IMG/VR virus record: IMGVR_UViG_2724679539_000005
Location: 1 to 64,000 of that record
Reading direction: 5' to 3' (one strand)
Source of the DNA: a virus
Taxonomy: Duplodnaviria > Heunggongvirae > Uroviricota > Caudoviricetes
DNA: 64,000 nucleotides
The notes under the pieces were generated by a model, which did no database searches, had not been told where the DNA came from, and saw nothing but the letters and a program-made list of their open reading frames with translations. The translations under genes were made by a program, and so were the position numbers. This document shows, piece by piece, positions 3,078-35,614 of the stretch; position 1 is the first letter of the stretch; the number at the start of each line of letters is the position of its first letter.

Positions 3078-3911
3078 ATGAACATCGAAAAAAGCAGATT
3101 AATTTCTGAGGCCGCCCCTCATCTGAACGCCTCTCTGGGCACAATTAACGGTAATGAATTTGCCGCAATTGTCCCGGTTATTCCTGGTCATATCGGTGGG
3201 CGTGAAACCAATATTGTTAGCGCAAAAGCGTTGCACAAAGCGTTGGGCGTGGGAAAAGACTTCTCTACATGGATCACTGATCGCATCTCTGAATATGACT
3301 TCACCATTGGGCACGATTACTCAGTCCATAAAACAATTTCCCCAAATTTGGGGAAAAGCCCGAATGGCGCGGCTTACAGCAAGATAAAGCACTCTGGCAG
3401 ACCCGGCAAAGACTATCTGTTAAGTGTCGGAATGGCGAAAGAACTGGCAATGATCGAACGCAATGATCAGGGTCGCGCTATCCGCCGTTATTTCATCCAG
3501 TGCGAGGAAGAATTACAGCGTACCGTGCCTGAAATCGCCGCCCGCTATCGTCGCCAGCTAAAAGCCCGTATCAGTGCCGCAAACAACTTTAAGCCAATGT
3601 GCGATGCGCTGAATATGGCCCGTGCCGAGCAGGGGAAAACGACGCAGCAACACCACTACACAAACGAGAGCAATATGATTTCTCGTATCGTTCTTGGTGG
3701 GCTAACTGCCAAGCAGTGGGCGCGGATAAATGGCTATTCTGGCGAACCTCGCGACCATATGAACGCAGAACAGCTTGAGCACCTCTCATATCTCGAAAGC
3801 ACCAATATCACGTTAATTGATATGGGCATGGAATATGAGCAGCGCAAAGGAGAACTCACCCGCCTGTCGCAACGCTGGCTCGCCAAGCGTCTGGAGGTAG
3901 TCAATGTCTAA
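3078..3911 (+). CDS. Phage antirepressor-like protein (KilA-C type)
   Basis: 277 aa; C-terminal region resembles KilA-C antirepressor domain. Confidence 0.6.
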   Translation: MNIEKSRLISEAAPHLNASLGTINGNEFAAIVPVIPGHIGGRETNIVSAKALHKALGVGKDFSTWITDRISEYDFTIGHDYSVHKTISPNLGKSPNGAAYSKIKHSGRPGKDYLLSVGMAKELAMIERNDQGRAIRRYFIQCEEELQRTVPEIAARYRRQLKARISAANNFKPMCDALNMARAEQGKTTQQHHYTNESNMISRIVLGGLTAKQWARINGYSGEPRDHMNAEQLEHLSYLESTNITLIDMGMEYEQRKGELTRLSQRWLAKRLEVVNV

Positions 3912-4086
3912 GCCAACAGGAACACCACAACCACAAAAACGCTACAAAGATGCCCACGGAGCACTCGTTACTGTCGAAAGCGTGTCTCACAACCGAGTGA
4001 CGTTTTATCGCGACGGGTATCAATCGCCATGCGTACAACCGCTGGCACGTTTCATGAAGGAGTTCGCGGAGGTTAACAAATGCTAA
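3904..4086 (+). CDS. Hypothetical small protein
   Basis: 60-aa ORF coupled to the upstream gene. Confidence 0.3.
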   Translation: MSKPTGTPQPQKRYKDAHGALVTVESVSHNRVTFYRDGYQSPCVQPLARFMKEFAEVNKC

Positions 4087-4604
4087 CCGTCCAGAAGAAG
4101 ACATTTTCACTGGCAGGTATGTCGCCAAAATCCAGCAATATGACGGCAAAGTCAGGCATTAATACAGCAGATACAAGCAAAGTTTATCATTTGCTGGTGG
4201 TCGGAACGGATGCCTTAACCATACCAGAAATCTCGGGCGATGATATTAGCATTGAGAAGGTCAGCGGCTATGCCAGAGAATTTCTGGTCGTAGATGGCTT
4301 TCTCTGCTCGTGTAGTGACTCCACAAAAACCTTCGTCCACGCGCGTGACGTTAACGAAATGAGCGCGATGTACTGTGCTTCTGGTTCTTCCAATAGTGAG
4401 TTTTCGGAGTCCATAAAAAAGAGCTTGCCGTTATGCGGCAACACGGTTTATGGTTATAAGGCACCTCATAAAACGGGTGCCGGGATTGGCGTCCTGAAAA
4501 TTCTGAAGGCGACATATGACGCGCCGAGCGTCTTTTTTTATGTCGTAGGTCTGACTCACCCATTTTTTGGGCGTTGGTGTATAATCCAGCGCCTTTGTCA
4601 ATCA

Positions 4605-4690
4605 ATGGTGGCTCAGGCGGGGGCTTCTTCGGAAGCGCCGGTATCCTTCAGAGCCGGTTACGCCAACCCTGTCTGGGCTACCACCAGCGA
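4605..4690 (+). ncRNA. C4/CI-like antisense RNA (P1 C4, P4 CI type), copy A
   Basis: GGGCTTCTTCGGAAGCGCCGG hairpin with UUCG loop and CCGGTTACGCCAACC shared exactly with copy B at 32687; loop CCTTCAGA is complementary to TCTGAAGG in the RBS of the ORF at 4742. Confidence 0.5.
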
Positions 4691-4741
4691 AATTGGCGTT
4701 TCCGGTGGTAGCGTAACCTGCTATCTGAAGGAGGCTGCCAC

Positions 4742-4936
4742 ATGCTGGCTACTACCCCTACCCAAAAACCGCAATTTATCTGGATTATCGCCGCAGTTCG
4801 CCGCGATTGCCCGACAATTACCGCCAAAATTCATCATATTGCTGCCGAGTCTGAACGCGATGCTCGCCGTTCTCTGGTGCGCGATCACGTCTGCTTTTTT
4901 GCTGGTCGTATCCGCATGGAGGTGGCACATGATTAA
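4742..4936 (+). CDS. Hypothetical small protein, first gene after the antisense RNA
   Basis: Strong SD GAAGGAGG before ATG; SD overlaps predicted antisense target. Confidence 0.45.
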   Translation: MLATTPTQKPQFIWIIAAVRRDCPTITAKIHHIAAESERDARRSLVRDHVCFFAGRIRMEVAHD

Positions 4937-5147
4937 AACCTACGATGTGCATATGGATCCCCTCGAACGCACAAGCCAGATCATCACACTGACAGAAGTG
5001 ATTAACGACATTCTGGTGAGCAACTCTCCCTCACGAGACGAAAGACTGAAGGCGTTACTCGCGATATTGGATCTCGCCGTTCGTGACGTTCATTTCCTGC
5101 TGGAAGGTGGCGAAATGCCAGGAAAAACGGGGGCAACCAATGAATAA
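4929..5147 (+). CDS. Hypothetical small protein (72 aa)
   Basis: Internal ATG with GGAGGTGG SD inside a dubious 355-aa ORF. Confidence 0.35.
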   Translation: MIKTYDVHMDPLERTSQIITLTEVINDILVSNSPSRDERLKALLAILDLAVRDVHFLLEGGEMPGKTGATNE

Positions 5148-5334
5148 CTCAATTAATACCCCTCGCCTTACGTCCGCACTTCAATTAATCGAGCAAGCAG
5201 CGGCTGCCCTGGTTGCTGTCAGTCTTTCGGCTGAAGAAATGGACGCTGCTGATGTCGTGGATGCGATTAAAGCGTGCTCATCTTTGGTTAACGATGCCCG
5301 TGCCGAGCTGGTAATTCTTGGGGGTGAAAAATGA
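5140..5334 (+). CDS. Hypothetical small protein
   Basis: ATG MNNSINTPRL overlapping upstream stop. Confidence 0.4.
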   Translation: MNNSINTPRLTSALQLIEQAAAALVAVSLSAEEMDAADVVDAIKACSSLVNDARAELVILGGEK

Positions 5335-21769: not shown

Positions 21770-22327
21770 TCATGCAGCCTCCCGACGGGCAAGAATCCTT
21801 GAGCCGAACGCCATCAACTCTCCACGATCAACGGTCGTAAAGTGGCAGTGTGTACGGGGATATGGGTGCCAGATAATGAGCATCGAGCCTTTATTATTTC
21901 CACTGACGGGTTTCCCGGTGAGTGGGTTAATAAATGCCAGTCGTCCTGCCGTGATGAATCTGACCTCACTGGCGGTTTGTATCGCTTCATGAAACCATCC
22001 GACAGACGTGTCAGCAGGCAATAACATTACACATCCCACACTACTGAATTTGTTTTCAGTGGCTGCCTTTTTAACAAAAGGGGAAATATTGCTGTATGGT
22101 GGATTCAGCCAGACATAACCAGAGGCATATCCCATTGCTTCAGGCCATGAAGTGGTTAATGTGTTCTGCTCCTGTGAGATAAAAAGCCGACATAGTCGGT
22201 TTTTTTCACTGGCTGCAGCATCAAGTTGAAAAACGAACTCTGCATTAAGCGCAGCAAAAATCTCTGGTGGTGTGCACCAGCTGTCGCGATGTTCTGCAGG
22301 AGTATTGCTTCCGGTGAAATCAGTCAT
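21770..22327 (-). CDS. Phage N6-adenine DNA methyltransferase (Dam-like)
   Basis: WLNPPYS catalytic motif. Confidence 0.75.
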   Translation of the reverse strand: MTDFTGSNTPAEHRDSWCTPPEIFAALNAEFVFQLDAAASEKNRLCRLFISQEQNTLTTSWPEAMGYASGYVWLNPPYSNISPFVKKAATENKFSSVGCVMLLPADTSVGWFHEAIQTASEVRFITAGRLAFINPLTGKPVSGNNKGSMLIIWHPYPRTHCHFTTVDRGELMAFGSRILARREAA

Positions 22328-24243: not shown

Positions 24244-24318
24244 GGCTGACCTCCTGAAAATGGCTGTGAAAATATCGCCCGCGAAATGCCAGGCTGATTA
24301 GGAAAACAGGAAAGGGGA

Positions 24319-24729
24319 TTAGTGATTCAGGCCGTTACCGCGTCCGTCGAGAAAAACTTCCACGAGCAAATCACGGGTATAAGTGCGCTCGATGCCGCGA
24401 TGCAGATAAAGCCGTCCGCGTAAATTAGCTGATGCAGTCCAGGTACCATCTTTGTGTTTGACCAGCATTCCTGGCATGACCGCACCTCGATTAACGGTCT
24501 GCGTTCCATAATGTTGATGAACCATAAAAACTCCTGCCCGTAAGCTGGGCTGCTGAACATATAGAGACTTCTGCGCGTATTCAGGCGGTGGATGGCCGCC
24601 GGTTGTCATAACTAAGCCGCCTCGTTGAAGCGACTGAGGTATGAGGTGTTGAGTTGATTTCAGCTGGTCACACCGACGTTCACGCGTCCGTTTCACCCCT
24701 CGCACTCCCCGGAGCCTGCCGAAATTCAA
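24319..24729 (-). CDS. Hypothetical protein with Arg-rich N-terminus (possible N-like antiterminator; uncertain)
   Basis: First leftward ORF downstream of putative OL; N-terminus [16 protein letters not shown]. Confidence 0.3.
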
Positions 24730-24799
24730 GCTGCGGATCTAAGCGGTCATCGCAACGGTGAATCAGGCGGTTGCCGTATCGTTGTGTTGTTGCGACATG

Positions 24800-24860
24800 G
24801 TAATAATAGCTATTGCTATTGGTGGTATCAATACTTATTGCTATTGATTGATGTGTTTTG
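24800..24860. promoter_or_regulatory. Putative OL/PL operator region
   Basis: Three TTGCTATTG copies plus ATCAATA, the same motif as the cI-cro intergenic region. Confidence 0.4.
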
Positions 24861-24964
24861 ATATTAACTGTTTGATAGCAAAAAGAATTAATTTTGTGAC
24901 TTGCATCGCATAGCGATAACTGAAGGGAGGTTGTGGTGGTTTTTCGAACGGTTTGTGTGATGAG

Positions 24965-25001
24965 GGGAGGGGACAAAAGAAAACCCGGCACGGTGGCCGG
25001 G
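24965..25001 (-). terminator. Putative terminator of the cI-kinase (PRM) operon
   Basis: CCCGGCACGGTGGCCGGG hairpin followed on the minus strand by a T-rich run. Confidence 0.4.
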
Positions 25002-25168
25002 CTAGATCTTAAAGTATTTATCTTTTAGAGATGTAGATGCAAAATTTTTTGCCTTTGAAAATTTTTTGTCATCAGAAGAGCTTATGAACTCATCTTTTTT
25101 GTAGGGAACCGCTAATGCTGCATCACGTCTGCGAGGCAGCTTACTTACTTCCTCGCACTTTTTCATGA

Positions 25169-26215
25169 TCAGTTATCCTTTAATAACCTATACAGTTTTG
25201 TAGGGGTACATCCTGAGGATATTGTTAAGTTCGTAGCACGCCTTTTCCGCCCACCATCGTATAAACGAAAACCAGTAGTAGACGAATTTTCTGCGTCAAA
25301 AACTATAGACAGTATAACGTCCCCAGACTTTTTTTGCCATTCATATGTGCCGTTAGTTGGTTTTGTCATCTGTAGACGCCAGTCAAGAACGCCATCACTT
25401 ATAGCTGAGAGATCGTTTAGTACGTCTAGTACGGATTGATATCTTTCATTTGGATCTACATGAATGCATTTGTTTACTATTGTTATCAATTTTTTATGTA
25501 TGTGGGAAGGATACTCTTTTAATGGATAGGAGCCATTAATTATCGACTCTCTGAGTTGTTCAATCGTTCTAAATGCAGATCTTTCTCTTTCAAAATTATC
25601 ATATCCAACACACATTCTATATATGGTTAATCCTGCCTGATATATGTCATATGTGAAATTATAATCATTTGTTGATAAAGAAAAATATTCCGGTGGCACA
25701 TGAAAATGATATCCAAACTCAGGCGCAGCTCTCGATTCCTCATTGACTAACTGAGACAATCCAAAGTCAGATAGCATGGCCTCATTTCTGTTTGATATCA
25801 TGATGTTATTAGGTTTTATATCAAAATGCATAAGACCTTTTGAGTGTATATGATAAAGCCCACTTAAAAATTGAATAGAATACCGTATTATCTCCCTGCT
25901 CGTAAGATTAATCTTTTTTATTAATTGGTTTAGCGAACCATTATGATAAAATGGCATGGCTATATAGATATTGCTCTCACATTGAGCAGCATACTGAACT
26001 TGCACAATATTTGGATGTGCATGTTTATAGAGAAGCCTTGCTTCATTAAAGTAGTCGTCGTGGTTAGTGTTTTCTTTTTTTTCTATTTCTTTAATCACCA
26101 AGTCATGAGCTAGGTGTCTGTCATGAGCCAGATATACTTTTGAAAAACAACCCTGTTCTTCTAGATCACGAATCCATTCGAATGCTACATCAGCTCTTTT
26201 GTATGGAGTCAGCAT
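25169..26215 (-). CDS. Eukaryotic-like (Hanks-type) Ser/Thr/Tyr protein kinase
   Basis: Gly-loop GCFSKVY, VIK lysine, catalytic loop HFDIKPNN, SDFGLS, PPE; AT-rich. Confidence 0.8.
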   Translation of the reverse strand: MLTPYKRADVAFEWIRDLEEQGCFSKVYLAHDRHLAHDLVIKEIEKKENTNHDDYFNEARLLYKHAHPNIVQVQYAAQCESNIYIAMPFYHNGSLNQLIKKINLTSREIIRYSIQFLSGLYHIHSKGLMHFDIKPNNIMISNRNEAMLSDFGLSQLVNEESRAAPEFGYHFHVPPEYFSLSTNDYNFTYDIYQAGLTIYRMCVGYDNFERERSAFRTIEQLRESIINGSYPLKEYPSHIHKKLITIVNKCIHVDPNERYQSVLDVLNDLSAISDGVLDWRLQMTKPTNGTYEWQKKSGDVILSIVFDAENSSTTGFRLYDGGRKRRATNLTISSGCTPTKLYRLLKDN

Positions 26216-26670
26216 CCCCTTACCTCCGCAGATAGTGCAGCCAAAACAGCTTCATTTGTTTCAGTTGTAAAACCAGAATTATCGATTCCATTTATATTAC
26301 GGTGTGACTTCAATATTTCTTTATACTCGATCTCTGTTAGGTTCAATGATGACTTCATACCAGATTTTCTAATGGTGTAATATCTTCTTACATCACTGCT
26401 TGAAAATGCTTCTTGAATAACAGCTTCTATATAAAGGCGGTCAATGCTAAGATTATCAGAGTTTGATTCAGTAACGCGTATAGCAGCTAATTCAACATTA
26501 TATAAATTAAGAATGTCGAGGATGTTATTTCGCACATACTTTAATTTTTCTGGTGTGTCTAAGGTCGAAGGTATTTTAATAACATCAACACATTTGAGTG
26601 CAGACTCATCAGTGCAATATACAACAAAAGATGTAACTTTGGGCGCCGCCCTAACACCTAGTATTCTCAT
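26209..26670 (-). CDS. Hypothetical protein (153 aa) coupled to the kinase gene
   Basis: Stop overlaps kinase start by 7 nt; AT-rich. Confidence 0.5.
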   Translation of the reverse strand: MRILGVRAAPKVTSFVVYCTDESALKCVDVIKIPSTLDTPEKLKYVRNNILDILNLYNVELAAIRVTESNSDNLSIDRLYIEAVIQEAFSSSDVRRYYTIRKSGMKSSLNLTEIEYKEILKSHRNINGIDNSGFTTETNEAVLAALSAEVRGC

Positions 26671-26750
26671 TTTTTATATCCCATTTTAGAATCAGGCTGC
26701 GTTTCTGCAGCCTCTCTCATCACCCAAATGTCTAATCAGGCTATTATTGA

Positions 26751-27443
26751 TTATCCATGTTTCCTGTATGTTTGCGGCATGCTCCCAATAACTTTCCCGA
26801 AGATAAACACCCGGTTCATCTCGTCTTTCTCGATTGGGTCCCACGGTGAGTAGCTCTTGTTATCAGAGATAACCAGCAGTTTATCCTTCATCATTTGCAG
26901 GCGCTTAACATGGGCTGTGTCGTCATACAGAAACGCATAGATACCATCACCGTCGAAAGATTTAACAGTGATATCAACGAACAGAAGATCACCTGGTTCG
27001 ATCGTTCCTGACATGCTGTCACCGCGTACGTTAATGATGCGGATATTTTCTGCCTTCCTGCCATCGAACATGTGACGAGCATCGTCAAACGAGTACTCAA
27101 CCGAGCGTAGAACTTCTACAAACTCACGGTTGATGACTCCCGGCCCGGCACTCACTTCTATATCAAGAACGTCAATCTTGAAGTATTTGGGATGGTTGGC
27201 AGCAGGCTTCCCTGATTGTTGACCGTCATTTCTCATCGGGCCTATGCCTGATGAGAGCCACTCTGTTCGAACACCCAATGCATTAGCTATTTCAACAATT
27301 TTTGTTGAGCCGCGTGCGTTGCCGCTTGTCAGTCTCCAGATTGTGGGTTGAGCTACGCCAGACGCCTTTGCAAGAGCGCCTTGAGACATTCCAGATTGTT
27401 CCATCGCTAGGTTTAAGCGATCAGCAAGAGTTTCTTTTTTCAT
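26751..27443 (-). CDS. cI: CI-like prophage repressor (HTH plus S24 peptidase domain)
   Basis: N-terminal HTH MSQGALAKASGVAQPTIWRL, C-terminal LexA-like domain; ATG at 27443 preferred over track TTG at 27479. Confidence 0.85.
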   Translation of the reverse strand: MKKETLADRLNLAMEQSGMSQGALAKASGVAQPTIWRLTSGNARGSTKIVEIANALGVRTEWLSSGIGPMRNDGQQSGKPAANHPKYFKIDVLDIEVSAGPGVINREFVEVLRSVEYSFDDARHMFDGRKAENIRIINVRGDSMSGTIEPGDLLFVDITVKSFDGDGIYAFLYDDTAHVKRLQMMKDKLLVISDNKSYSPWDPIEKDEMNRVFIFGKVIGSMPQTYRKHG

Positions 27444-27547
27444 AAGTTTTAATTTATACGCTTGCGTATTGATGGTCAAAACACGTTTTGCTATTGATTG
27501 GGTTAATACGCATTGCTATTATCCATTCATTGTAATACCAATAGGAA
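27444..27547. promoter_or_regulatory. Putative OR/PRM/PR operator-promoter region
   Basis: Divergent cI/cro intergenic with repeated TTGCTATTGAT / TACGCATTGCTATT motifs. Confidence 0.5.
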
Positions 27548-27781
27548 TTGATAATGACAAATCAAACCATTCAACTCGCAATCAGTATTACAGGTAGTCA
27601 AAAACGACTGGCAGATCTATGCGGTGTAGCCCAGCCCACTGTTTGGCGTTGGCTACACGGTGGCGGAATTGATGCCCGCTATGTAATGAAAATTGTCTCA
27701 GCCACTGGTGGAAAGATTAAACCAGCAGATATTCGTCCCGACCTTGCACCATTGTTTAACGCGAGTAATTCTGCCGCCTAA
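27548..27781 (+). CDS. cro: Cro-like HTH regulator
   Basis: 77 aa HTH LADLCGVAQPTVWRWL, divergent from cI. Confidence 0.7.
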   Translation: MIMTNQTIQLAISITGSQKRLADLCGVAQPTVWRWLHGGGIDARYVMKIVSATGGKIKPADIRPDLAPLFNASNSAA

Positions 27782-27805
27782 ACTGCGGCGTTAACTGATA
27801 AGGCA

Positions 27806-28351
27806 ATGATTATGCAACCACTTACATACCAACAGACTAGCGGATTTAGCCCGACTGCGGTGATAAATCGTTCTCAAATAAAACAGGTGCCAGGCCACGA
27901 AAAAATCCGTGATGCCGTTCGCGCCTGGTCGGCTGCAGATAATCAGGATGTTGTTGCCGCACTCATTGTGAATGAGTATCGGGAGCAGGGCGGCGGCACC
28001 ATCGATTTCCCTGATGATGTCAGCCGTGCACGCCAGAAGCTGTTCCGCTTCCTCGATAACAAATTCGATTCTGAAAAATACCGAAATAACGTGCGTGAAC
28101 TGACCCCGGCAATTCTGGCGGTACTACCGCTGGAATATCGCGGCCACCTGGTTGAGCAGGATAGCTTCATGGCTCGGCTGGCTGAAATGGAAAAGGAACT
28201 CTGTGAGGCAAAGCAGGCGGTCATTCTCAACGCACCACGCCACCAGAAACTGAAGGAGATGAGTGAAGGTATTGTGTCGATGTTTCGTGTGGACCCGGAT
28301 CTGGCTGGTCCATTGATGGCGATGGTCACCACCATGCTGGGGGCAATATGA
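27806..28351 (+). CDS. CII-like regulator (YdaT-type)
   Basis: 181 aa, position and size match the cro-proximal regulator of Rac-type prophages. Confidence 0.5.
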   Translation: MIMQPLTYQQTSGFSPTAVINRSQIKQVPGHEKIRDAVRAWSAADNQDVVAALIVNEYREQGGGTIDFPDDVSRARQKLFRFLDNKFDSEKYRNNVRELTPAILAVLPLEYRGHLVEQDSFMARLAEMEKELCEAKQAVILNAPRHQKLKEMSEGIVSMFRVDPDLAGPLMAMVTTMLGAI

Positions 28352-30065: not shown

Positions 30066-30349
30066 CGGGCAAAGAGGCAATTATTCATTACCTGGGGACT
30101 CATAAGAACTTCTGTGCGCAGGACGTTGCCGCGGTAACAGGCGCAACCGTAACCAGCATAAATCAGGCTGCGGCTAAAATGGCGCGGTCAGGAATCCTGG
30201 TCGTTGATGGTAAGGTCTGGCGAACGGTGTATTACCGGTTCGCTACCAGAGAAGAACGGGAAGGAAAGGTGAGCACGAATCTGATTTTTAAGGAGTGTCG
30301 TCAAAGTGCCGCGATGAAGCGGGTGTTGGCTTTATATGGAAGAGAGTAG
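30062..30349 (+). CDS. ren: Ren protein
   Basis: Near-identical to lambda Ren. Confidence 0.9.
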   Translation: MTGKEAIIHYLGTHKNFCAQDVAAVTGATVTSINQAAAKMARSGILVVDGKVWRTVYYRFATREEREGKVSTNLIFKECRQSAAMKRVLALYGRE

Positions 30350-30413
30350 GTATGAGCAATTATTGTTACTAATTTTAGTTTTACGACATTCGTGATAACT
30401 AAATAATTGATGT

Positions 30414-30668
30414 GTGGAACTGAATTATAAAGGGGATGATGTTTTGGGAAATAAAGAAAATATCGATTGTAAGCACACAAGAAGCTCATGCTATAAAAAC
30501 AAGCAGATGAAAGATGTTATTTATATTACATTGCCTAAACTCACTGAAGAAGAAGTAGAAATTTTTAAGGGACCAATGCATAAAGCATTGCTTGCAGGGA
30601 TAAATGTTACAAAAAAGGCAGTTTCTGATGCCCTGCTAAACAAAGGGATAAAAGTTGAATTTAAATAG
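30414..30668 (+). CDS. Hypothetical small protein, AT-rich
   Basis: 84-aa ORF in the AT-rich insert. Confidence 0.3.
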   Translation: MELNYKGDDVLGNKENIDCKHTRSSCYKNKQMKDVIYITLPKLTEEEVEIFKGPMHKALLAGINVTKKAVSDALLNKGIKVEFK

Positions 30669-30719
30669 AGTAATTCAGTGGCAACAATAGCACTCATTTG
30701 TGAGTGCTATTGAAATTTA

Positions 30720-32138
30720 TTAGAAAATAATGTTTGCTATATCCGAGATAGCATTTAAAGAACCTCTGTGGTCACTTCCTGTTTTAGGTAAAATATAGGA
30801 ATATCGAGGGTCTTCATTATATGTTAACTTCCAGTGTTTTCCATCGCTTGACGCACTGAAACCTAAGTCCTTTAAATTTCTTTGTGTTGCGCTATCCATG
30901 CTTCTGTAACCTGTTAAAGTCCTTTTAAGTAATTGGCGGCGACTCTCGGTTTCTTTATTGTATTCATTATTGGCAATTAGGGATGATAAGATATGGTAGC
31001 TTCTACCAAATTCATTTTTATTTTTTATGGCAGTTTTTAGCGCGTCAATAATTATATTTTTGATTTCTCCATCAAAAAAATCAGTCTCTTCACCAGCATT
31101 AAGCACAATGCTTCCTTGGGCTGAAGCTTGTGATTGAAGAGTGCGTACTCTGTGCTCTAAAGAGGAGATCTTATGCTTAAGATCTTCTATTTGGTCATCT
31201 TTCGCAACATTATCGGCTTCGTAAAGCGCCATCAGTTCGCGTGTGTATTCTCCTCTTTCTTTGAGTGAGTTAATAGAGTCTTTCGTTTTTCTGGTTTGTA
31301 TCTCACTCCATCCACTATCTGAGACAGGAGCCATTGTAGTCGTAGCTCTTACAACATCATCAAATAACTCATCTTCAAATTCTTTTGCGGTTTTCTCACC
31401 ACGGCGATAAAAACTGATATTTTGACCCCGTGGCCAATAGATACCAACAGCACCAGCATAGGCATTTTTAGCATTTGTCTCATTTTTTAGCTTAATAGAA
31501 AATAGTCTATTGCTAGGCTCAATTAATACATGTGCTAATCCGCATACCTTTCTTGCAAGGCGTTCTGGGATGATATTGTGAGCATGTTCATTAAAAAAAT
31601 ACTTGGAGCTAACGTATATTATTGGTAGTCTGTTGTCAGTTTCACCATTTATAACTTTAGCTGCTATATTTAAATGTTCATCAGTATCATCTAAGGAATG
31701 AGGTTCGACTGACACCTTGAAAATATCATCAAGACCACCAGAAAATTTATCAATCAATCTCATAACAACTAATGGTTTCTTAGGTTGCGGGGCTAGATAA
31801 GCTGCATCTTGGCTTACAACGCTAGATTCCACCTGAATCCACATGGTATCAGTTTTGAGATTTTTATTAATTGAAATATCTGTTACCCATTTGTGTGGCT
31901 CAGATATTTTCGAATACCTAAAACAGCCTAAACTAGTATCTTTGTTTTTATAAGTTATTATATCAATTCTTTCATTTTTAGACTCTATGAAGTACTCCTC
32001 GCTTTTATAATCACATACTAATTGTGCTGGAATAAAAGTTGTATGTGGTGAGTCGTTTACCCAAGAAAAACATTCATTAAAGATCTCAGCTAGAGATGTG
32101 GAGTTTGAAACATAAAAACCAGTTGAGAAATATTTCAT
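30720..32138 (-). CDS. Hypothetical protein (472 aa), AT-rich moron
   Basis: Long ORF with coiled-coil-like C-terminal half; no recognisable motif. Confidence 0.65.
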   Translation of the reverse strand: MKYFSTGFYVSNSTSLAEIFNECFSWVNDSPHTTFIPAQLVCDYKSEEYFIESKNERIDIITYKNKDTSLGCFRYSKISEPHKWVTDISINKNLKTDTMWIQVESSVVSQDAAYLAPQPKKPLVVMRLIDKFSGGLDDIFKVSVEPHSLDDTDEHLNIAAKVINGETDNRLPIIYVSSKYFFNEHAHNIIPERLARKVCGLAHVLIEPSNRLFSIKLKNETNAKNAYAGAVGIYWPRGQNISFYRRGEKTAKEFEDELFDDVVRATTTMAPVSDSGWSEIQTRKTKDSINSLKERGEYTRELMALYEADNVAKDDQIEDLKHKISSLEHRVRTLQSQASAQGSIVLNAGEETDFFDGEIKNIIIDALKTAIKNKNEFGRSYHILSSLIANNEYNKETESRRQLLKRTLTGYRSMDSATQRNLKDLGFSASSDGKHWKLTYNEDPRYSYILPKTGSDHRGSLNAISDIANIIF

Positions 32139-34925: not shown

Positions 34926-35255
34926 TTGATAAAAAATGGTTGCGACTGGCAGCAAGGAGGAATCATGGCTGATTTGAGAAAAGCAGCGCGTGGTCGGGAA
35001 TGCCAGGTAAGAATCCCTGGCGTATGTAATGGCAATTCTGAAACGTCTGTACTGGCACATATCCGGCTGGCTGGATTGTGCGGTACCGGTATCAAACCGC
35101 CAGACCTGATTGCCACCATCGCATGTTCTGCCTGTCACGACGAAATCGACCGCCGCACACATTTTGTCGATGCTGAGTATGCAAAAGAATGCGCGCTGGA
35201 AGGTATGGCGAGAACACAGGTTATCTGGCTGAAAGAGGGGGTTATTAAGGCGTGA
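34926..35255 (+). CDS. Nin-region Cys-rich protein (DUF1364-like)
   Basis: Cys-rich segment [16 protein letters not shown]; coupled to rusA. Confidence 0.45.
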
Positions 35256-35614
35256 ATACCTACAGCATCACATTACCCTGGCCTCCGAGCAATAATCGCT
35301 ATTACCGCCATAATCGCGGGCGCACGCACGTCAGCGCAGAGGGGCAGGCATACCGCGATAACGTCGCCCGAATCATTAAAAACGCAATGCTGGATATCGG
35401 CCTGGCTATGCCTGTGAAAATCCGTATTGAGTGCCACATGCCGGATCGCCGTCGCCGTGACCTGGATAATCTGCAAAAAGCCGCTTTTGACGCACTCACC
35501 AAAGCAGGTTTCTGGCTGGATGATGTTCAGGTCGTTGATTACCGTGTTGTGAAGATGCCCGTTACCAAAGGTGGGAAGCTGGAGCTGACCATCACTGAAC
35601 TGGGGAATGAATGA
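35252..35614 (+). CDS. rusA: Holliday-junction resolvase RusA
   Basis: 120 aa with RRRRDLDNL motif. Confidence 0.85.

Follow-up and report, generated by a model that had tools for sequence, protein, structure and literature searches.

The DNA analysed here is a window of 64,000 nucleotides (positions 1 to 64,000 of the IMG/VR record IMGVR_UViG_2724679539_000005, Caudoviricetes) that carries a lambdoid prophage, and we were concerned with three consecutive genes of its immunity region, termed A, B and C, which follow a cI-type repressor gene on the minus strand (Table 1). Judged from the DNA alignments described below, this locus is the known stk operon of phage 933W, located behind the cI of a different lambdoid prophage. 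An initial annotation, made from the letters of the sequence, had reported a Hanks-type kinase of 348 aa (gene B) and an upstream open reading frame (ORF) of 153 aa (gene A), and the ORF list agrees with both in position and strand. The two ORFs had also been described as AT-rich, translationally coupled and lying directly downstream of cI on the same strand, and all of this was found: the GC content is 0.32-0.37 over the three ORFs of the cassette versus ~0.5 in the flanks, a spacer of 80 nt separates gene A from the end of cI at 26751, and genes A and B overlap by 7 nt (ATGCTGA; TGA at 26209-26211, kinase ATG at 26215-26213), with GGAGG preceding the kinase ATG. A hairpin with a T-tract is real as well, but it does not follow the kinase directly as had been stated, because an ORF of 54 aa (gene C), missed at the time, intervenes. 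The ATG of gene C is located 2 nt past the kinase stop and has the Shine-Dalgarno sequence AAGGA. The stem after gene C (AGCCCGGCCACCGTGCCGGGTT, then TTCTTTTGTC) has a folding energy of -15.5 kcal/mol (z=-3.5) and is the sole terminator-like site in 24500-27700; within this range, none was found between cI and the cassette.

Table 1 Genes and regulatory features of the immunity region, with positions counted in the 64,000-nt window.
Feature	Position	Strand	Basis or remark
cI-type repressor	26751..27443	-	Peptidase_S24 1.5e-18 and HTH_3 (Pfam); start ATG according to PGAP
Gene A, 153-aa RuvC-fold protein	26209..26670	-	ORF, AlphaFold2 (AF2) and Foldseek
Gene B, 348-aa Hanks-type kinase Stk	25169..26215	-	Pfam Pkinase 1.2e-46
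Gene C, 54-aa basic protein	25002..25166	-	ORF, PHROG 4063
Intrinsic terminator, equivalent of 933W tM	24972..25003	-	stem 25003..24982 and T-run
Leader hairpin GGCTGCAGAAACGCAGCC, without T-run	26694..26713	-	inside the 63-nt leader 5' of gene A
oR-like operators and divergent pRM-like (-) / pR-like (+) promoters	27451..27553		promoter scan, repeats
oL-like operators and pL-like promoter, left border of the immunity region	24797..24892		repeats, promoter scan
A-B-C cassette common with 933W (leader hairpin, genes A, B and C, terminator)	24976..26733	-	blastn

The operator-like repeats of the initial annotation were recovered on both sides of this region: 24797-24845 matches 27472-27520 at 73% over 49 nt (oL/oR repeats), and 27534-27553 is matched in inverted orientation by 24826-24845. 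The promoter scan gave a pRM-like site (TTGACC-17-TAAATT, 27479..27451, - strand), which ends 7 nt before the cI ATG (leaderless-like), a pR-like site (TTGATT-17-TATTAT, 27494..27522, + strand) and a pL-like site (TTGATA-17-TATTAT, 24831..24803, - strand), with such sites being no commoner in the scan than in shuffled sequence (10 versus 10.3). The same scan did not yield a convincing promoter inside the cassette. The ATG at 27443 is the most likely start of cI and gives a protein of 230 aa; the mechanical ORF reaches to a TTG at 27479. The 80-nt spacer between cI and gene A folds at -19.5 kcal/mol (z=-2.6), and an Rfam search of 24300-27700 returned no RNA family.

By score and by catalytic residues, the product of gene B is a Hanks-type (eukaryote-like) kinase. 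It matches Pfam Pkinase (PF00069) over residues 21-260 with 159.7 bits (cut-off 31.7 bits, E=1.2e-46) and PHROG 2361 (9e-139), and its kinase domain matches the PADLOC models of the defence kinases mad6 (8e-49) and PD-T4-6 (1.5e-36). Of the motifs listed in the initial annotation, VIK, HFDIKPNN, DFG and PPE are present, but the Gly-rich loop is there only in part, since it is degenerate (EEQG22CFS25KV) and retains a single glycine, G22, plus S25. The VIK lysine K42, E58 of helix alphaC, the catalytic loop H130-F-D132-I-K134-P-N-N137, D150-F-G, P175-E176, D190 of helix alphaF and R258 are invariant in 82/82 family members. The kinase domain comprises approximately residues 12-272 (nt 25400-26182) and is followed by a small C-terminal domain of strands and a helix (residues 279-348, nt 25172-25381), with the strands at 290-326 and the helix at 338-347 in the AF2 model (predicted local distance difference test, pLDDT, of 87). 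Two tryptophans of this domain of ~70 aa, W279 and W293, are invariant across the family. The Foldseek matches of the kinase are eukaryotic Ser/Thr kinases (AMPK, Aurora, CaMKII, PAK1), and the catalytic loop is likewise of the Ser/Thr type (D-x-K-P-x-N), despite the tyrosine-kinase activity that has been reported for the 933W protein. In the activation loop, between DFG and PPE, a tyrosine (Y169, 25709-25711) is invariant in all 82 members. Y169 is a candidate autophosphorylation site, which would fit the reported tyrosine-kinase activity.

The relationship to 933W is close and sharply bounded. Positions 24976-26733 correspond to 3477-5232 of the 933W locus with 96.9% identity over 1758 nt (blastn), and in a megablast search against phage records 25000-26733 was 97% identical to 933W and ~50 other Shiga toxin (Stx) phages. 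The counterparts in 933W are L0083/ST933Wp23 for gene A (orthologue accession WP_001221207.1), stk/ST933Wp22 for gene B and L0081/ST933Wp21 for gene C, and the hairpin after gene C is annotated there as tM, the terminator of pM. The kinase is identical to 933W Stk in 337 of 348 residues and shares with it the flanking ORFs, the terminator and the position downstream of cI; the earlier remark that Stk of 933W occupies an equivalent position can thus be extended to orthology. The DNA flanking the cassette, i.e. cI and the oL side, does not match 933W by blastn, and the cI of the window, of an immunity type unlike that of 933W, has no similarity to 933W cI. By the high identity of the block and its non-matching flanks, the kinase is stk, transferred as part of a self-contained, AT-rich moron. 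The 63-nt leader with its hairpin (26671-26733) is kept with 933W despite the different upstream gene; it contains a TAAAAT box without a good -35 and may be a promoter, a site of processing or a stabilising element. Compared to 933W, the proteins differ at 2/153 (A), 11/348 (B) and 4/54 (C) residues, with nonsynonymous/synonymous codon changes of 2/8, 11/12 and 4/3, respectively. By these codon counts, constraint is much tighter on gene A than on either the kinase or gene C.

The cassette block was found in 225 of 5426 complete E. coli genomes, in the form of two alleles. The allele of the window (at least 99% identity, 30 genomes) sits in non-Stx lambdoid prophages of commensal or environmental E. 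coli, and the other one (~97.6%, 196 genomes) is that of O157:H7-type Stx prophages. This distribution bears on the idea that the kinase serves lysogenic conversion or virulence and acts on the eukaryotic host of Shiga-toxin-producing E. coli, not on phages. A eukaryote-like kinase carried by Stx phages would be in keeping with such a role, but we give it hardly any credence, since the window allele resides in non-Stx prophages, the same cassette occurs in soil and marine Proteobacteria, in Bacteroidota and in a cyanobacterium, and no secretion signal was obvious by eye (no signal-peptide predictor was run). Moreover, Hansen et al. found stk to be without effect on the attaching-and-effacing lesion phenotype (PMC3681748).

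Later papers describe 933W Stk as a eukaryote-like tyrosine kinase that is co-transcribed with cI and by its activity aborts superinfection by HK97 (PMC3564112; PMC6356687), that is switched on by HK97 infection and shows little activity otherwise (PMC3681748), and whose gene is expressed from pRM (PMC3430580). The orthologue of A in phage phi24B is the lysogen protein P3, which was detected by two-dimensional polyacrylamide gel electrophoresis and is 100% identical to 933W NP_049483.1; its mRNA is restricted to lysogens and reaches a level five orders of magnitude above that of cI (Riley et al., PMC3342100). The initial annotation had called the 153-aa partner of the kinase unexplained, which holds only in part: the protein already has an annotation, albeit a misleading one, as RuvC-like resolvase, and the lysogen-restricted expression of its phi24B orthologue is on record. 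The proposal of a lysogen-expressed exclusion module, made in the same place, is supported by the orthology with 933W and by the lack of a terminator-like site between cI and the cassette. Stk of 933W was among the first kinase-based abortive-infection genes.

The association of the kinase with its two neighbours was examined by scanning one genome per GTDB species (185,579 species), the motifs of the kinase being the sole criterion. Out of 179 relatives obtained in this way, 80 loci were kept, which belong to alpha-, beta- and gamma-Proteobacteria, Bacteroidota, Ignavibacteria and one cyanobacterium; the A-B-C family is rare in these terms but phylogenetically widespread. In 90 out of 90 kinase loci, a match to the profile of gene A is located directly upstream on the same strand (E 1e-34 to 1e-75). 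Among 82 non-redundant loci, 59 have A and B overlapping by 8, 4 or 1 nt, and in the others the two genes lie within 12 nt of each other. The Klebsiella homologue of A stands behind a cI-like gene and that of the alphaproteobacterium Terasakiella behind an integrase gene, both being followed by the kinase. The kinase homologue of Pseudomonas adjoins Abi_2 and integrase genes, that of Acinetobacter is a moron among tail genes and that of Vibrio adjoins a type I restriction-modification system, and each of the three is preceded by an ORF of 152-154 aa that overlaps the kinase start. An exhaustive search with the A profile yielded 442 representative clusters. Nearly all of the best 150 of these 442 consist of a single domain and are 150-165 aa long, and two distant members, picked without regard to the kinase, are followed by a Pkinase gene of 347-362 aa and an ORF of 62-67 aa; the possibility that A is fused to or paired with other effectors was rejected on these grounds. 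Other flanks of the cassette comprise helix-turn-helix (HTH), S24 and M78 regulators, type I restriction subunits, integrases and transposases, four cassettes are flanked by genes with a dCMP/cytidine-deaminase domain, and in some loci no phage genes could be identified among the nearest neighbours. The contexts of the cassette are mobile or defence-like, with immunity regions, other sites within prophages and genomic islands as the places between which it moves.

Gene C proved to be a regular member of this arrangement. The basic protein of 54 aa belongs to PHROG 4063 (3e-38) and is left without annotation by PGAP in related E. coli genomes. Among the 88 loci with enough downstream sequence, an ORF of 45-75 aa starts -8 to +12 nt from the kinase stop in 71, compared to 7.9% of random positions taken from the same loci, and the exceptions carry the same frame with a start further inside the kinase gene. 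The open frame after the kinase matches the small-protein profile in 88/88 loci, a result that is circular for the 72 loci from which the profile was built. With a profile made from proteobacterial sequences only, the cyanobacterial (5e-8), the Ignavibacteria (0.01) and two Bacteroidota ORFs (0.08) were the top 4 of 2160, the Bacteroidota matches being individually weak. Of these exceptions, the frames of Photobacterium, Enterovibrio and a Cytophagales locus matched with E ~1e-8 and those of the Pseudomonas group with only 0.002-0.02. In Klebsiella and in two metagenomic contigs, independent gene callers placed a gene of 59-67 aa at the position of C. The family is characterised by an N-terminal motif K-(I/V)-K-N...Y-x-(T/S)-R-x-x-L, in which the arginine is nearly invariant, and a C-terminal motif G-(Y/H/F)-(F/I/V)-x-(W/F/L). 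The conserved C-terminal tyrosine was considered as an obligatory phospho-acceptor and rejected as a rule, since several members have H, F or N in its place. Genes A, B and C are linked and translationally coupled in every locus examined.

RefSeq, PGAP and PHROGs annotate gene A as RuvC-like Holliday junction resolvase, RuvC family or 'res', and with regard to the fold this is well founded. The AF2 model of A, built on 32 homologues, has a pLDDT of 91.8 and a predicted template modelling (TM) score of 0.86. Its best PDB matches are RuvC proteins of Thermus, Deinococcus, E. coli and Pseudomonas (TM 0.72-0.80), led by 4ld0 (E=1.3e-9, TM ~0.8) and including 1hjr (E=5e-8); behind RuvC, Foldseek lists other resolvases and the structures 5ola and 5ol8 of the C-terminal domain of TEFM. 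TEFM is a catalytically inactive RuvC-like protein. By sequence, A shares the fold of RuvC without being detectable as RuvC: the Pfam RuvC model (PF02075) gave 13.6 bits, below the gathering cut-off of 22.2 bits (E=0.06), and a search of the PDB sequences with the A-family profile found no RuvC chain, the matches being chance ones at E ~0.4. Searches of A and C with Pfam, NCBIfam and PADLOC returned nothing meaningful; we treat the hits to tm_HEPN (E=0.015) and EMYY lipoprotein (E=0.0045) as noise.

The catalytic positions of RuvC were compared in two independent alignments, one with the Pfam hidden Markov model (HMM positions 1-64 against A residues 3-65) and one made by hhalign with E. coli RuvC (residues 2-64). 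In both, D7 of RuvC is replaced by R7 and E66 by R65, the motif ILGVR7 of A being paired with ILGID7 of RuvC and AAIR65 with FAIE66, and these alignments, weak as they are, agree with the fold match. Among 83 members of the A family, which are 30-67% identical to the protein of the window, R7 is found in 82 and R65 in 80. Residues K44, R47, R78, D52, E68, E82, E87, S91, S92, Y97 and E140 are conserved as well, E140 being the only one in the last helix. Since arginines are aligned to D7 and E66, A is probably not a nuclease, and the fold model and the alignments together point to a protein that is probably a RuvC-fold pseudo-nuclease and not the resolvase of the present annotation. The alternative, i.e. 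a genuine RuvC-type Holliday-junction resolvase that serves phage recombination and merely adjoins the kinase, could draw on the confident fold, on the database annotations and on several invariant acidic residues. We nevertheless consider it very unlikely: in addition to the arginines and the lack of recognition by the Pfam and PDB sequence searches, the prophage already encodes the Holliday-junction resolvase RusA in its nin region (35252-35614, + strand, Pfam 6e-22), so that the 153-aa protein is not needed as its resolvase. In addition, the orthologue of A is expressed in stable lysogens and not on induction, and all 90 loci, among them those without identifiable phage genes nearby, show A coupled to the kinase.

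In our view, A, B and C probably constitute a lysogen-expressed kinase exclusion system in which A and C are obligatory, non-enzymatic subunits. In such a system, the cassette would be transcribed together with cI from pRM in the lysogen, as far as the tM-like terminator. The kinase would be the effector of abortive infection or exclusion and would be nearly inactive in the uninfected lysogen, until a component of a superinfecting heterologous phage (HK97 in the case of the 933W allele) activates it. Active kinase would then phosphorylate cellular proteins, and the infection would abort. We infer that A and C regulate or sense and do not catalyse; as non-enzymatic regulator, scaffold or sensor, they would hold the kinase inactive, link it to the signal of infection, or both. 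Since RuvC proteins are dimers, A may serve as a scaffold that brings two kinases together for trans-autophosphorylation, for which Y169 is a candidate site; for C, a role as brake or adaptor is conceivable.

Several points weigh against this model. Exclusion by the allele and prophage of the window would follow from the orthology with 933W, and a physical interaction of A, B and C is suggested by their linkage only. If stk alone sufficed for the exclusion by 933W, A and C would be modulators and not essential subunits. The census of neighbouring genes shows the cassette in heterogeneous surroundings, which include housekeeping genes. As to the pseudo-nuclease nature of A, its residue alignment to RuvC is weak by sequence (hhalign probability 1.4%; Pfam E=0.06) and spans the N-terminal 62-63 residues, so that two of the four catalytic positions, D7 and E66, are compared and D138 and D141 lie outside. 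Besides, A keeps the invariant acidic residues D52, E68, E82, E87 and E140, which makes an unconventional active site possible.

The step at which the kinase is released could also be explained in another way. In a toxin-antitoxin (TA)-like or prophage-regulatory module, the kinase would be a toxin and A and/or C its antitoxin or brake; exclusion would follow from the loss of a labile inhibitor, with the shut-off of host expression freeing the kinase without specific sensing, and the module would stabilise the prophage or tune lysogeny. The tight coupling of the three genes is as in TA operons, gene C is small, basic and fast-evolving (see the four changes in 54 residues given above), and the kinase module KKP provides an example with both regulatory and defence roles in a prophage (PMC11341870). 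Furthermore, the little activity of Stk reported for uninfected cells implies that something restrains it. On the other hand, the activation of 933W Stk is reported as a response to a specific heterologous phage, the cassette is also found in contexts without identified prophage genes, and it contains neither a phosphatase nor a protease partner. We regard this explanation as unlikely; it overlaps with the exclusion system proposed above and differs from it solely in how the kinase is released.

A more specific version of the exclusion system can be put forward tentatively, and we hold it to be rather doubtful. According to it, A, as a catalytically dead subunit, would be the infection sensor of a widespread three-protein immune system, with Stk as effector, and would recognise phage recombination machinery or branched or single-stranded DNA intermediates. 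Perhaps as a dimeric scaffold, A would activate the kinase via trans-autophosphorylation at Y169, with C as brake or adaptor. The two carriers of the cassette, i.e. the prophage of the window and 933W, both encode Red (exo/bet/gam), and HK97 encodes Erf and Abc2. Gp41 of HK97 corresponds to erf, coding for an Erf-like annealing protein, by gene order (locus L094, 2176-2781). Gp41 is reportedly the trigger of Stk. The contrast between Red and Erf as a pointer to recombination sensing is a weak hint and not evidence, and is of relevance only if gp41 does trigger Stk. A search of the literature on RuvC-like proteins and kinases in anti-phage defence and on HK97 gp41 gave nothing relevant.

The kinase itself is already known, but the three-gene architecture and the pseudo-nuclease nature of A appear to be undescribed. 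A literature search, which covered few subscription papers, found no published account of the three-gene unit, and a full-text search of the same literature found no paper after 2019 that treats 933W Stk together with HK97. The question of how Stk is kept off and switched on thereby becomes a three-component problem. The analysis also corrects the spreading annotation of gene A as 'RuvC-like Holliday junction resolvase' and adds a gene of ~55 aa, often skipped by annotation pipelines, that is co-inherited with A and B. The PADLOC models used here miss the family: there is none for A or C, and the kinase is recognised solely by those of generic kinase domains.

Some observations concern the surroundings of the cassette. 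To the right of cI, the cro slot (27548-28351, + strand) is taken by an HTH protein of the YdaS type, and a protein with a YdaT domain comes next, at the place of lambda cII, so that an early-right region of Rac/Qin-like organisation stands beside a lambda-like O/P replication module. To the left, an N gene or nutL could not be recognised downstream of the pL-like promoter (24319-24800, - strand). In related genomes, the annotated genes on this side begin with one for a division inhibitor of the DicB/Kil type (24319-24525), behind which gam, bet and exo are located, and a phage N6-adenine DNA methyltransferase of the Dam type is encoded at 21770-22327 (- strand, Pfam 7.6e-56) in the same early-left region. 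A second AT-rich island (GC 0.32-0.41) extends over ~30200-32000 to the right of the replication genes; synteny with an almost identical prophage of E. coli (L095) places emrE, ylcJ and ybcK in it, i.e. cargo of the DLP12 type.

Among known systems, the stk region of 933W is the closest: it has the same genes in the same order, ends in the same terminator and likewise follows cI in the immunity region. The two differ in that a DUF3024 gene lies between cI and L0083 in 933W and is absent from the window, and in that 933W is a Stx phage, whereas the prophage of the window is not and carries RusA and the AT-rich island, with emrE, quuD and iss assigned by synteny with L095. The DUF3024 gene is located directly upstream of the RuvC-fold gene both in 933W (locus L001, 5239-5580) and in Proteus penneri (locus L014, 2100-2441), and in phi24B its orthologue (P2) is likewise confined to lysogens (PMC3342100). 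DUF3024 could be a fourth member of the cassette, one that is optional. The exclusion system RexA/RexB of lambda occupies the same slot, from cI to the pL/oL side, is expressed in the lysogen with cI and has abortive exclusion as its outcome (PMC6356687). It consists, however, of two genes instead of three, one of which encodes the membrane protein RexB; its effector is not a kinase, and no Rex family was among the Pfam matches of A, B and C.

Other defence systems also contain kinases. PD-T4-6 and Mad6 give a generic kinase-domain match only (125-165 bits, compared to 400-520 bits for the Stk family's own profile); no partner genes of MADS were found near the cassette, and the kinase models grouped as PD-T4-6 form a loosely defined set. 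The KKP module of Pf prophages is, like the cassette, a multi-gene Ser/Thr-kinase module of a prophage with a role in defence (PMC11341870), but it is composed of two kinases and a phosphatase in a TA-like manner, whereas the cassette of the window is without phosphatase and its partner genes are unrelated. Staphylococcal Stk2 (Depardieu 2016) is also a Hanks-type kinase; a phage protein activates it, and its broad phosphorylation results in abortive infection. In contrast to Stk2, which is encoded by a single gene of the host, the Stk family described here has a C-terminal domain of its own of ~70 aa and is always accompanied by a RuvC-fold partner and a small third gene.

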